Made by a program: the position numbers and the translations under genes. From a virus (lineage: Duplodnaviria; Heunggongvirae; Uroviricota; Caudoviricetes), in the IMG/VR virus record IMGVR_UViG_2597489870_000007: DNA of 48,718 nt; one strand, written 5' to 3'. Shown piece by piece: positions 36,912 to 40,561 of the stretch; positions within the stretch are counted from its first letter, which is position 1; the number at the start of each line of letters is the position of its first letter. The notes beneath the pieces are model-generated. The model ran no database searches. It was not told where the DNA came from and saw only the letters and a list, made by a program, of their open reading frames with translations.

Positions 36912-37144
36912 GCTGCACCTCCGAGATGCTTCATGTTTTTTCCGGAGCGAAAGGTTATAAGCGGCATACTGACGCGGTAATTACGGCCCAGCGGTTCACA
37001 AATCACCTTCTGACATTCACGGTCAACCAGGCTAACACGTAGAACATGCCCTGCAGGCGTGGTGTACCACTGCCCAACTGTAGGAATTGATGTTTTTTTA
37101 CGCTGAAATAAACGGTAAATGTTGAGGATCAACGGATTAAGCAT
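36908..37144 (-). CDS. Hypothetical protein (78 aa)
   Basis: ORF-track ORF overlapping both neighbours by a few nucleotides, suggesting translational coupling within the early-right operon. Confidence 0.4.
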   Translation of the reverse strand: MLNPLILNIYRLFQRKKTSIPTVGQWYTTPAGHVLRVSLVDRECQKVICEPLGRNYRVSMPLITFRSGKNMKHLGGAA

Positions 37145-37973
37145 GACGATGCCCTCCGCTGATATTCAGGAGACGGTGAATATGAAAATTAGCCTTATCC
37201 GCCAGACGAATACGTTCAGCCTGCAAGTTAATAAGGGTTTCTACCAGAACCTGATGCGCCTGCGGATCCGAAAGAGTTACCTTGCGCAGAGCACGTAGTG
37301 CAGTTGTTACATAACTGAGTTTATGTAAGTCTTCATCATTCAGACGAGTGAGGGCTGGGACAGTAGCCATGATGGCAGCCTCCTTGATCGGTGAAATACT
37401 TCCACCACCGGAAACGCCAATTTCGCTGGTGGTGAACTGAACGGGGTTGGCGTAACCGGTGATCAAGGAAACCGGCGCATCTTTCGATGCCCCCGCCCAG
37501 CCCACCATAACTTTGATGTGAGCAAATGCGGACGATAAAAAAGACGCTGGCGCGTCATATATCGCCTTGATCAATTCCAGGACGCCAATCCCGGCACCCG
37601 CTTTATAAGGTGCCTGAACAGTGTAACGTCCCGGAATGGCAGAATCAATGTGCTGGTGGTCCTTCACACTCAACAAAATCACGCCTGAATTTCCACAAAG
37701 GACTAAAGCACTCATGCGGGTAGTCTTTGCGAAGATAGATAACGCGCTGTGTTTCTGGTTCCCAACGAATAACATGGACATAAAGCCCTCTTCCGTCACG
37801 AAACCAGCGGTTAAGTTCCCGCACAACTCGCCCCCCACAGTCAGGTAAAGTTCTCTGTGGTTACTTACAGCCAGGTGATTTGGTAATCTGCATTCATGCC
37901 GTAACAACAGGTGTTCAGCGACACTGACCACCAGCTGTTGCGACAAACGGTTATTTGCCGTTAAACTGTTCAT
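37137..37973 (-). CDS. Hypothetical protein (278 aa), early-right operon
   Basis: Long ORF tightly packed between neighbours; no Walker A motif; family not recognised. Confidence 0.5.
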   Translation of the reverse strand: MNSLTANNRLSQQLVVSVAEHLLLRHECRLPNHLAVSNHRELYLTVGGELCGNLTAGFVTEEGFMSMLFVGNQKHSALSIFAKTTRMSALVLCGNSGVILLSVKDHQHIDSAIPGRYTVQAPYKAGAGIGVLELIKAIYDAPASFLSSAFAHIKVMVGWAGASKDAPVSLITGYANPVQFTTSEIGVSGGGSISPIKEAAIMATVPALTRLNDEDLHKLSYVTTALRALRKVTLSDPQAHQVLVETLINLQAERIRLADKANFHIHRLLNISGGHRHA

Positions 37974-38533
37974 GCGTTAGTTTCTCCACAGACACAAAAC
38001 GCCACGACGCCCGGAGCTGCACACTCGCGGGCGTCACTCTTTTCTGGAGCGCAAAAGATTTTGTAGACCAGTGCTGCATGCTCTTGGAGCTTCGAAATTG
38101 ACAGATACAACTCATCATTAATTGCTGTCTGCTCGTGTGGCTCCACGACCCCATCTTCGATTGCCGAACGAATCTGCTTTGAGTAATTCCCGATCTGTTC
38201 GATGACTTCCAGCAGGCGCTGGTTTATATCGGCGTTCTCTACTTCCTCAATTTCAGGAAGCGATACGAACACCCCACCAGCAGACTGTGCGACAGCATCC
38301 GCAATGTAGTGAGTGCCAGCCGCGCGCTGTAAAACCATTGCCCATCCCAGCGGGAAAATCTGATCGCCATCGGCACGAAGGCGGTTAAATAATGCGTTCT
38401 CTGTTACATCCAGCCAGTCAGCTGCTTCAGCGTAACCACCCGGCAACGCTGCGATAGTTTTTCTGACAGCTTTCACGTACCACTCAGGCTGTTTTTCTAC
38501 TTTCCAGTGATACTTACCCACGGTTAGCCTCAT
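37970..38533 (-). CDS. Hypothetical early protein (187 aa), possible CII-like or YdaT-like regulator
   Basis: Second gene after cro on the PR side, the position of cII or ydaT in other lambdoids; sequence assignment is uncertain. Confidence 0.4.
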   Translation of the reverse strand: MRLTVGKYHWKVEKQPEWYVKAVRKTIAALPGGYAEAADWLDVTENALFNRLRADGDQIFPLGWAMVLQRAAGTHYIADAVAQSAGGVFVSLPEIEEVENADINQRLLEVIEQIGNYSKQIRSAIEDGVVEPHEQTAINDELYLSISKLQEHAALVYKIFCAPEKSDARECAAPGVVAFCVCGETNA

Positions 38534-38564
38534 CGTTCTGTGGTTAAAAATTGAAGGTGTTCTG

Positions 38565-38765
38565 TTAATCTTTCGGATAGATATCCGGTCTTAAGTCAGA
38601 TTTCGTAATTGCACCTGACGTGCATTGCTCAAGTTTTTTCGCCAGCACAAAACTGGCTTTTTTATAACCATTGAAAACCAGCCGTAAGTAGCCAGGTGTT
38701 GAGCCAACTTTTCCGGCCAACTCGCCCTGCTGTTCTTTGGTTAAAGAGTCCCAATACGCTTCCAT
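38565..38765 (-). CDS. cro: Cro-like repressor (YdaS/Cro-type HTH)
   Basis: ATG at 38765 (RBS GGAGGT) gives 66 aa MEAYWDSLTKEQQGELAGKVGSTPGYLRLVFNGYKKASFVLAKKLEQCTSGAITKSDLRPDIYPKD; divergent from cI. Confidence 0.75.
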   Translation of the reverse strand: MEAYWDSLTKEQQGELAGKVGSTPGYLRLVFNGYKKASFVLAKKLEQCTSGAITKSDLRPDIYPKD

Positions 38766-38770
38766 ACAAT

Positions 38771-38839
38771 ATGTACCTCCGATATACATATTACATGATT
38801 GAAATGAACCTTCAAGATACTTGTACCTTATCGGTACAA
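38771..38839. promoter_or_regulatory. OR-like operator/promoter region between cro and cI
   Basis: Two inverted-repeat operators: ATGTACCTCCGATATACAT (38771..38789) and TTGTACCTTATCGGTACAA (38821..38839); minus-strand TTGAAG-N16-TAATAT is a candidate PR. Confidence 0.55.
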
Positions 38840-38855
38840 AGGTTTTAATTTCGTT

Positions 38856-39530
38856 ATGAAAACAATCCATGACATCCGGCGGTCTAACGCCAGAAAACTG
38901 AGAGATGGTGTTGGCGGGAATTCTTCCTTTGCCACCATGATTGATCGCGAGCCAACCCAGACCAGCAGGTTTATGGGAGATGGTGCTACTAAAAATATCG
39001 GTGACAGCATGGCGCGGCACATCGAAAAATGTTTCGACCTGCCTGTCGGATGGCTTGATCAAGAACACCAGACCACGAACATCACAAAAAAACCTGATGT
39101 TTCAATCACTAACAAACAAATAACGTTAGTCCCTGTCATATCATGGGTACAGGCCGGAGCATGGAAAGAAGTTGGCTATTCTGAGGTTGATTTGAGCACA
39201 GCAGAAACTTACCCCTGCCCTGTACCCTGTGGCGAAATGACTTATATCTTGCGGGTGATTGGTGATTCAATGATTGATGAGTACCGCCCTGGAGACATGA
39301 TTTTTGTTGATCCCGAAGTCCCTGCCTGCCACGGTGACGACGTTATTGCATTGATGCACGATACAGGCGAAACCACCTTCAAGCGATTGATAGAAGATGG
39401 AACACAGCGTTATCTCAAAGCATTAAACCCAAACTGGCCTGAGCCTTACATTAAGATTAACGGTAATTGCTCTATAATTGGTACAGTGATTTTCTCGGGA
39501 AAACCAAGAAGATACACAATAAAGGCCTAA
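38856..39530 (+). CDS. cI: CI-like repressor (HTH plus S24 LexA-type autopeptidase domain)
   Basis: 224-aa ORF with N-terminal HTH and C-terminal S24 features (VIGDSMIDEYRPGDMIFVDPE... later FKRL). Confidence 0.85.
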   Translation: MKTIHDIRRSNARKLRDGVGGNSSFATMIDREPTQTSRFMGDGATKNIGDSMARHIEKCFDLPVGWLDQEHQTTNITKKPDVSITNKQITLVPVISWVQAGAWKEVGYSEVDLSTAETYPCPVPCGEMTYILRVIGDSMIDEYRPGDMIFVDPEVPACHGDDVIALMHDTGETTFKRLIEDGTQRYLKALNPNWPEPYIKINGNCSIIGTVIFSGKPRRYTIKA

Positions 39531-39542
39531 TCAATATTTATG

Positions 39543-39565
39543 AACCTGCTTCGGCAGGTTTTTTT
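39543..39565 (+). terminator. Rho-independent terminator after cI
   Basis: AACCTGC-TTCG-GCAGGTT followed by TTTTT, starting 13 nt after the cI stop. Confidence 0.7.
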
Positions 39566-39569
39566 ATAC

Positions 39570-39597
39570 TTGACAATGTACCCATGAGATACATAAT
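39570..39597 (+). promoter_or_regulatory. PL-like promoter with overlapping OL operator
   Basis: TTGACA (39570..39575), 16-bp spacer, CATAAT (39592..39597); the spacer holds ATGTACCCATGAGATACAT (39576..39594), which shares its half-sites with the OR operator at 38771..38789. Confidence 0.6.
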
Positions 39598-40197
39598 GTA
39601 TCCAAAAGAAACATGAGGCAGGCAAGATTCAAACAAAATTTGGTTGTAACACGGCGTATGGCACATGCGTCGTTAGCGGTCTGGGGACGTTAAAGGGGAC
39701 AATCCACTTCTTGCTCGGGCAAACAAACCAGGTAGCCGGAATGTGCAAGTCAATGATGATGCTGATAAGACGCCTAACCAGCGTGGCGATCCGGTTTGAC
39801 GCCTGGGAAGAGACCAGGGTGCAACGATGAGGGCATTTATAGAGCCGCGACAAAGTGTGGTGCCGTAACTGGCTAAGTGCTCTCAGCGTTGTGGTAATCC
39901 GCGAAATGGCGCGGCGGTAAGTATGGCGGGGTTACTCTTTCCCCGTTGAGGACACCGGATTGTCAGGTTGACCATACGCCTGAGTGACAACCCCACCACA
40001 ACAGCCACTGCTTTGGCGGTACCAGTTTGTACACTTGCTTCCGGCTGGTACCGCTCTTTTTACAAAATAGAGAAGAGCATCACCGGACGACGGGCTCATA
40101 ACCCAATCCATCCGGGCGGCTGCCACCGCAGGTGTTCTTCTCTGTTTTGTGGAGAAACCAACCGACCTTGCAGGGTCGATATGATGAGGAGCAGCAA

Positions 40198-40561
40198 AAT
40201 GGCTAGCGAACGCAGTACTGATGTGCAGGCATTTATCGGGGAGCTGGACGGCGGCGTATTTGAAACCAAAATCGGCGCAGTTCTCAGTGAAGTCGCTTCC
40301 AGTGTGATGAACACGAAAACCAAAGGTAAGGTCTCACTCAACCTGGAAATCGAACCATTTGATGAGAACCGTGTGAAAATCAAACACAAACTCTCATATG
40401 TTCGCCCGACTAACCGCGGGAAAATTTCCGAAGAAGACACCACCGAAACGCCGATGTATGTCAATCGCGGTGGTCGCCTGACTATTCTGCAGGAAGACCA
40501 GGGACAATTACTGACTCTTGCCGGTGAACCTGACGGAAAACTACGCGCAGCAGGTCATTAA
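40198..40561 (+). CDS. Hypothetical protein, YfdP-like (121 aa)
   Basis: ATG at 40198 preceded by GAGGAG; first gene of the PL-side operon; size and position match yfdP of the CPS-53 prophage. Confidence 0.5.

Follow-up and report, generated by a model that had tools for sequence, protein, structure and literature searches.

Five related 19-bp inverted repeats as probable CI and Cro operators in an e14/SfV-type prophage immunity region

The DNA examined here is a single window of 48,718 bp, the whole stretch of IMG/VR virus record IMGVR_UViG_2597489870_000007 (Caudoviricetes). Within it, one pseudo-palindromic 19-bp motif occurs in several copies around a CI-like repressor gene: three right-operator (OR) sites between cI and the divergent cro-like gene, and two left-operator (OL) sites beyond cI, at a second early promoter. 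To judge from sequence comparison, these repeats are almost certainly binding sites for the CI and Cro repressors of this prophage, and the five together very probably serve as operators in a lysis/lysogeny switch of lambda type, with e14/SfV immunity. The evidence lies in the sites and their statistics, in the promoter elements that they overlap, in conservation of the sites among related loci, and in the covariation of the motif with the recognition helix of the repressor. The region is the known e14/SfV immunity region; the element itself is not new, and it is the five-site map that extends it.

For identification of the sites, every position of the window was scored against the symmetric consensus ATGTACC-N5-GGTACAT (14 specified positions). 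Exactly five matches with three or fewer mismatches were found, all inside two intergenic stretches (197 bp). They are given below with the elements of the rightward promoter (PR), the repressor-maintenance promoter (PRM) and the leftward promoter (PL) that they cover.

OR1, 38771-38789: ATGTACCTCCGATATACAT, read as ATGTACC-TCCGA-TATACAT; overlaps the last 2 nt of the PR -10, the predicted PR start and the cro Shine-Dalgarno sequence.
OR2, 38804-38822: ATGAACCTTCAAGATACTT, read as ATGAACC-TTCAA-GATACTT; weak, with 3 mismatches; covers the PR -35, its centre at -43 from the PRM start.
OR3, 38821-38839: TTGTACCTTATCGGTACAA, read as TTGTACC-TTATC-GGTACAA; a perfect 7+7 palindrome; covers the PRM -35 and most of the spacer to the -10.
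OL1, 39576-39594: ATGTACCCATGAGATACAT, read as ATGTACC-CATGA-GATACAT; takes up the entire PL spacer plus 3 nt at the start of the -10.
OL2, 39596-39614: ATGTATCCAAAAGAAACAT, read as ATGTATC-CAAAA-GAAACAT; weak; covers the PL -10 end together with the predicted start.

Two background models were used, 100 shuffles for the core TGTAC-N8-TACA and a first-order Markov model of the window for consensus matches. The core is present at 3 places in the whole 48,718 bp, against a shuffle mean of 0.13, and none of the 100 shuffles reached the observed count. Under the Markov model, matches with three or fewer mismatches are expected 1.26 times in the whole window and 0.005 times in the 197 intergenic bp. 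Three of the sites, OR1, OR3 and OL1, had been quoted in a first-pass annotation made from the letters alone, and these 19-mers are present exactly where it placed them; the other two, OR2 and OL2, it had missed. It gave the shared half-sites as ATGTAC and ATACAT; the half-site is in fact the 7-mer ATGTACC/GGTACAT, whose right halves are degenerate in this window. Complementarity in OR1 and OL1 is limited to ATGTA/TACAT, and the sole perfect palindrome among the three quoted sites is OR3, which, as had been described, adjoins the cI start, ending 17 bp before the ATG (38856). Measured from centre to centre, OR1 and OR2 are 33 bp apart, OR2 and OR3 17 bp (with a 2-bp overlap), and OL1 and OL2 20 bp; OL2, which has 3 mismatches, starts one base past OL1. 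No third OL site was found near PL at four or fewer mismatches.

To place the sites among related loci, ~5.8 billion proteins were searched, giving cI homologs graded from 90% down to ~37% identity; 25 of these were aligned and then used to fetch 68 loci from one-genome-per-species contigs. The motif was found at -85, -52 and -35 from the cI ATG in ~30 loci with a full-length relative (cI 40-88% identical), spread over Pseudocitrobacter, Klebsiella, Pantoea, Rahnella, Edwardsiella, Erwinia, Serratia, Proteus, Rosenbergiella, Symbiopectobacterium, Salinicola, Halomonas and Vreelandella. Conservation in homologous immunity regions, which the first-pass annotation had held to be expected of such repeats, is thus seen as a motif kept at fixed offsets, the ranges being -85 to -89 for OR1 and -52 to -56 for OR2. 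In the Enterobacterales loci the motif is also present at +720 and +740 from the cI ATG, and in the Halomonadaceae loci the OL pair lies farther downstream, beyond extra genes. Many of the related loci are closer to the palindromic consensus than the window is. OL1, for example, has 0 or 1 mismatch in nearly all of them with a variable spacer, and is free of mismatches in 14 of 24 Enterobacterales loci; OR2 reads ATGTACC in Erwinia, Proteus and the Halomonadaceae; and the left half of OL2 is kept as ATGTACC in most Enterobacterales loci, its right half being weakly conserved. In an alignment of 25 loci, half-site columns averaged 1.49 bits, compared with 0.27 for the OR3 spacer and 0.74 for other intergenic columns. 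In three loci, one from Proteus (L026) and two from Rosenbergiella (L027 and L028), a perfect OL1 is present in the PL spacer and no OL2 could be recognised.

The two genes on either side of OR run divergently with 90 bp between them, and a CII-like gene (Pfam Phage_CP76) is next after cro.

cI, 38856-39530, plus strand: CI-like repressor of the YmfK/CohE type, 224 aa, with an N-terminal helix-turn-helix and a C-terminal S24 autopeptidase.
cro, 38565-38765, minus strand: cro-like gene of the YmfT/CroE type (RefSeq name ymfT), 66 aa, with a YdaS-family helix-turn-helix.

The Peptidase_S24 match of cI is strong (Pfam, E 1.5e-26). An AlphaFold model of CI, built with 25 homologs, had a mean predicted local distance difference test score (pLDDT) of 77, rising to ~85 over the N-terminal domain, for which it predicts four helices with the helix-turn-helix at residues 22-28 and 33-40. 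Foldseek comparison of the model placed lambda repressor structures at the top (2HNF, 3BDN, 8GMU, and 1F39/1KCA for the C-terminal domain), and its matches also include the lambda CI-RecA and LexA-RecA complexes. Among the aligned CI homologs, S138 and K176 hardly vary, and most of these proteins keep the Ala100-Gly101 dipeptide. Rosenbergiella cI lacks the Ala-Gly dipeptide at the cleavage position (EKVSEW), so this repressor may not be SOS-cleavable. The Pfam matches of cro are weak (YdaS_toxin and HTH_3), and its start at 38765 (MEAYWDSL) was set by homology to the cro genes of ~30 loci and by the SfV cro annotation. A longer cro open reading frame (ORF) starting at 38789 (MYIGG...) was ruled out by this homology and by the position of the Shine-Dalgarno sequence.

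Among homologs, the operator motif and the DNA-reading residues of the repressor vary together. All loci with the TGTACC motif encode a CI recognition helix of the form P-T-Q-x-S-R. Four Halomonas/Chromohalobacter loci encode P-S-Y-I-S-R instead (P-D-Y-I-S-R in Chromohalobacter), and in these the TGTACC motif is absent; ATTACC-N4-GGTAAT is found in its place, with three copies at OR and, in all but one of the four loci, two more downstream. The offsets from cI in this group (L033, L044, L046 and L047) are -78/-53/-38, with the downstream copies at ~+2270 to +2900 except in L046. A single locus (L035) has an STISQ helix together with TTAGCG-N3-CGCTAA, again in a 3+2 layout, at -90/-56/-40 and +1645/+1670. 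The three classes of helix and operator have a common arrangement, with three sites at OR and two at OL, and the spacing between half-sites changes along with the sequence. This covariation points to the repressor as the probable binder. Together with the fixed layout in ~30 loci it lends support, at the level of sequence, to the first-pass proposal that the repeats make up a repressor recognition motif and set the immunity specificity of the prophage.

The same observations bear on another reading, that the sites are read mainly or only by Cro (of the YmfT type), or that CI and Cro read different subsets, for instance Cro OR3 and CI the ATGTACC...TACAT sites. The cro gene is always adjacent to the sites, and the Cro helix-turn-helix, like that of CI, varies between specificity classes. 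OR3 also departs systematically from OR1 and OL1 at its outermost positions (T1, and a variable position 19), and in CP-933P the footprints of PaaR2 and YdaS overlap while their preferences differ. Within the TGTACC class, however, the Cro helix drifts from GYLRLVFNG in the Enterobacterales to AYLRQVLAC in the Halomonadaceae, whereas the CI helix PTQxSR is almost invariant from E. coli to the Halomonadaceae and the operators are unchanged, which favours CI as the protein constraining the half-site. To our knowledge, CI and Cro use the same operators in every characterised lambdoid switch, and this includes CP-933P. A switch read by Cro alone, or one with divided subsets, is therefore considered improbable, and sites shared by CI and Cro are preferred.

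As expected for operators, the sites overlap the -35, -10 or start elements of PR, PRM and PL (for PR and PL, the start points predicted near 38780-38783 and near 39604, respectively). The elements concerned are as follows.

PR -10, 38788-38793, minus strand: TAATAT, a putative element read from the sequence.
PR -35, 38810-38815, minus strand: TTGAAG, likewise putative and read from the sequence, with a 16-nt spacer to the -10.
PRM, 38821-38849, plus strand: -35 TTGTAC (38821-38826), 17 nt, -10 TTTAAT (38844-38849); predicted start at or next to the cI ATG (leaderless).
PL, 39570-39597, plus strand: -35 TTGACA, 16-nt spacer, -10 CATAAT; 11/12 to consensus.
cI intrinsic terminator, 39542-39561, plus strand: found by terminator scan and annotated in the SfV and Ayreon records.
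cro Shine-Dalgarno sequence, 38780-38776, minus strand: GGAGG, within the OR1 spacer.

For PR, the information content over 25 loci is 1.76 bits at -11A and 2.0 bits at -7T, other loci having CATAAT or TATAAT here. The TTG of the -35 is conserved (1.05-2.0 bits) in an OR2 spacer that otherwise varies, the hexamer being TTGACG in the Halomonadaceae loci. An alternative PR farther upstream, TTAAAA-17-TACAAG, was rejected, its hexamers not being conserved as promoter elements, unlike the TTG, -11A and -7T of the chosen PR. The site that the first-pass annotation had assigned to the OR side was correctly positioned, but it covers the start point of PR and the Shine-Dalgarno sequence of cro and does not precede the promoter. 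The spacer of OR1 alone is conserved (CCTCC), because the GGAGG of cro is encoded there. OL1 had likewise been placed inside the PL spacer and does fill it, and in 20 Enterobacterales loci PL is invariant as TTGACA-ATGTACC-N5-GrTACAT-AAT.

For PRM, the TAAT of the -10 is conserved across the aligned loci, and no Shine-Dalgarno sequence was found upstream of cI. The ymfK mRNA of the K-12 e14 element was shown to be leaderless by differential RNA-seq (PMC4681348), and the e14 PRM sequence is the same as that of the window except for one spacer base; taken together, these support the PRM assignment. In all compared loci OR3 starts with TTG and not ATG, from which it appears that this site supplies the -35 hexamer of PRM.

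The repeats might alternatively be RNA or DNA hairpins (terminators or processing sites) and not protein sites, and a terminator scan did flag 38821-38839 for its 7-bp stem, 5-nt loop and T-rich tail. OR3 was accordingly considered as a terminator or structured RNA, and rejected. Its arms are conserved at 1.3-2.0 bits, its spacer varies freely (0.15-0.40 bits), and in none of the 7 pairs was a change seen on both sides among the 25 diverged loci, whereas the stem of the true cI terminator has paired substitutions across loci. What is conserved is thus the sequence of the repeats, as expected for a site bound by protein but not for an RNA hairpin. OR3 also lies upstream of both predicted starts, and so outside the PR and PRM transcripts, and the same half-site recurs at five places. 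We regard the hairpin explanation as hardly credible beside operators read by protein. Host LexA boxes or chance AT-rich palindromes of promoter regions are equally hard to credit: e14-type prophages are SOS-inducible and the sites do contain TGT...ACA, but the spacing is TGT-N11-ACA and not CTGT-N8-ACAG, no LexA box (CTGT-N8-ACAG, one mismatch or none) was found in 38500-39700, five matches stand against the 0.005 expected in 197 bp, and the motif follows the recognition helix of the phage repressor, not the host.

The assignment to the e14/SfV (YmfK-YmfT) immunity type follows from near-identity of cro, OR, cI and OL, at 97-100% to the e14 ymfK/ymfT and SfV cI/cro regions. The immunity region is 96-99% identical to that of phages Ayreon, 2H10, cdtI, SfV, SfIV and a series of Stx2c phages, and 100% identical to E. 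coli H10407; identity is at least 95% in 1323 of 1327 matching records. It was found in 1324 of 5426 complete E. coli genomes, with the RefSeq gene names ymfK and ymfT. A three-way alignment of the window, e14 and SfV over cro-OR-cI-terminator-PL-OL gave 97% mean column identity, and all five sites are present in it. The few substitutions between e14 of K-12 and the window fall mostly in spacers or in degenerate right half-sites. OR1, for example, has TCCGA-TATACAT in the window and TCCGG-TGTACAT in e14, and the left half of OL2 is ATGTATC in the window and ATGTACC in both e14 and SfV.

Parts of this arrangement are already on record. In the SfV GenBank entry (U82619), the equivalent of 38771-38839 is labelled 'putative operator region', and PL is annotated as a promoter in the Ayreon record. 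YmfK has been catalogued as the repressor of e14 and as sensitive to SOS, and genes of e14 group with sulA and recN in a single expression module (iModulon). The analysis of e14 by Mehta, Casjens and Krishnaswamy in BMC Microbiol 2004 is reported to have identified the repressor and Cro proteins and their binding sites. Searching the literature for the motif as a phage repressor operator brought up unrelated papers only.

Close identity to SfV and e14 stops just after OL2 (39613/39614), and the sequence beyond diverges, with a short CAGGCAGGAC-like motif downstream still common to many loci. The boundary of the immunity module therefore coincides with the last operator, as a mosaic boundary.

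Compared with lambda, whose OR and OL layout is established, the region has the same general plan: divergent cI and cro with three related pseudo-palindromic sites between them, more sites at PL, a weak site beside a strong one, OR2 centred ~42-43 bp upstream of a leaderless cI start, and a CI made up of a helix-turn-helix and an S24 domain. It differs in that the motif is 19 bp with a 5-bp unread centre (17 bp in lambda), there are two OL sites and not three, and the OR spacings are 33 and 17 bp as opposed to 24 and 23 bp. OR1, moreover, covers the start of PR and the Shine-Dalgarno sequence of cro, whereas in lambda it is found between -35 and -10, and the best palindrome here is OR3. The cI of the window is ~35% identical to lambda cI, in the C-terminal domain only, and ~32% identical to 434 cI. 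The operators of 434 and P22 have a central spacer without base-specific contact, and although their sequences are unrelated, the variable N5 here suggests a similarly unread centre. Phage 933W (strain EDL933) likewise has only two OL sites, again of unrelated sequence.

Of the footprinted systems with this gene layout, PaaR2/YdaS/YdaT of CP-933P (E. coli O157:H7) is the nearest. There too the cI-like gene is leaderless, Cro belongs to the YdaS family, a third regulator is CII-like, and the OR palindromes recur at a PL-like promoter. Its palindromes, however, are 18 bp with half-site GTTTAGTAA and number four at OR, and PaaR2 lacks the S24 autopeptidase layout of the cI described here. Matches of the CI N-terminal domain to the CI structures 7NKV and 8C3K were weak (E 0.05-0.2). 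The closest solved relative of this DNA-binding domain is Rep of Salmonella phage SPC32H (PDB 5D50; residues 1-73, E 6e-4, with Foldseek in agreement). Rep differs in having no S24 domain and in being inactivated by an antirepressor (5D50 is the Rep-Ant complex) and not by self-cleavage.

In the mechanism that we propose, each 19-bp site would be read by one repressor dimer, each subunit setting its recognition helix (33-40, PTQTSRFM) on a single TGTACC half-site, and the 5 bp in the middle would not be read base-specifically. PR would be shut off by OR1, over the -10 end, the start and the cro Shine-Dalgarno sequence, together with OR2 over the PR -35; OL1 and OL2 would shut off PL in like manner. 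At -43 from the leaderless cI start, OR2 occupies the position from which lambda CI activates PRM, and activation of PRM from here may be expected. Cro at OR3, over the PRM -35, or CI in excess, would turn cI off. The weak OR2 and OL2 lie 33 and 20 bp from their strong neighbours, approximately whole helical turns, which suggests cooperative filling, possibly in a set order and with looping between OR and OL. Repression would be released by SOS-triggered self-cleavage of CI at Ala100-Gly101 through the Ser138/Lys176 dyad.

It is conceivable, if rather doubtful, that the switch is wired unlike lambda in spite of the shared parts. OR3 is perfect, lies over the PRM -35, and overlaps OR2 by 2 bp at 17 bp (~1.6 turns), with OR1 placed on the PR start and cro ribosome-binding site, so occupancy of OR2 (activating) and OR3 (repressing) could be mutually exclusive and act as a toggle on cI transcription.

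Several points weigh against the assignment of all five sites as operators of a lambda-type CI/Cro switch. OR2 and OL2, at 3 mismatches each, are at the level expected about once per window by chance, and their case rests on position and conservation. The best palindrome is OR3 and not OR1, which, were CI affinity to follow palindrome quality, would reverse the order known from lambda, and with OR2 and OR3 overlapping by 2 bp at 17 bp centre-to-centre, their simultaneous occupancy is uncertain. PR scores only 8/12 against the sigma-70 consensus, below the promoter-scan threshold. Covariation of this kind does not tell whether CI or Cro is the protein that reads the sites, and literature searches on SfV, Stx2c, e14 and ymfK found no binding study for the e14/SfV immunity type.

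Other features were noted elsewhere in the window. On the PR-operon strand, a C4 antisense RNA (Rfam, 82 bits; 37425-37512, minus strand) and an isrK Hfq-binding RNA (64 bits; 37537-37613, minus strand) lie adjacent to one another. Together they appear to make up a second module for immunity or antirepressor control, one that works through RNA and is of the P1/P7 immI or Gifsy-1 IsrK kind. Both RNAs fall inside a 278-aa ORF (37137-37973, minus strand), named 'immunity region' in the SfV and Ayreon records and with a Pfam Phage_ASH match, which may be over-called.

The PL leader (39604-40198, plus strand; ~590 nt) has no convincing ORF and is a mosaic common to phages of other immunity types, its most widely shared piece being 39888-40006. 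It folds slightly better than shuffles (z = -2.4), with a strong terminator hairpin at ~40018-40056, and an Rfam search of the leader gave no match. According to the SfIV paper these phages are without N, and RNA-based (put-like) antitermination in the leader is thus a possibility. A near-consensus LexA-type box, ACTGTTTATTTTTACAGTA, was also seen at 29679-29694 (CTGT-N8-ACAG, AT-rich centre), overlapping the first codons of a 350-aa DNA methyltransferase-like ORF (28652-29704, minus strand); it may be coincidental coding sequence or may place the methylase under SOS control.

What is gained is the five-site map, a consensus, ATGTACC-N5-GGTACAT, that can be scanned for across genomes, and a comparative set for repressor/operator co-evolution. 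In that set, the three classes of helix and operator (TQxSR with TGTACC-N5, SYISR with ATTACC-N4, and STISQ with TTAGCG-N3) form a natural series with which the co-evolution of repressor specificity and half-site spacing could be dissected. About one-quarter of complete E. coli genomes carry this immunity type in the form of e14 and related elements, and it is also that of Shigella serotype-converting, cdt and Stx2c toxin phages. If the sites act as proposed, the operator code would predict homoimmunity among these prophages and the promoters that become active upon SOS induction.

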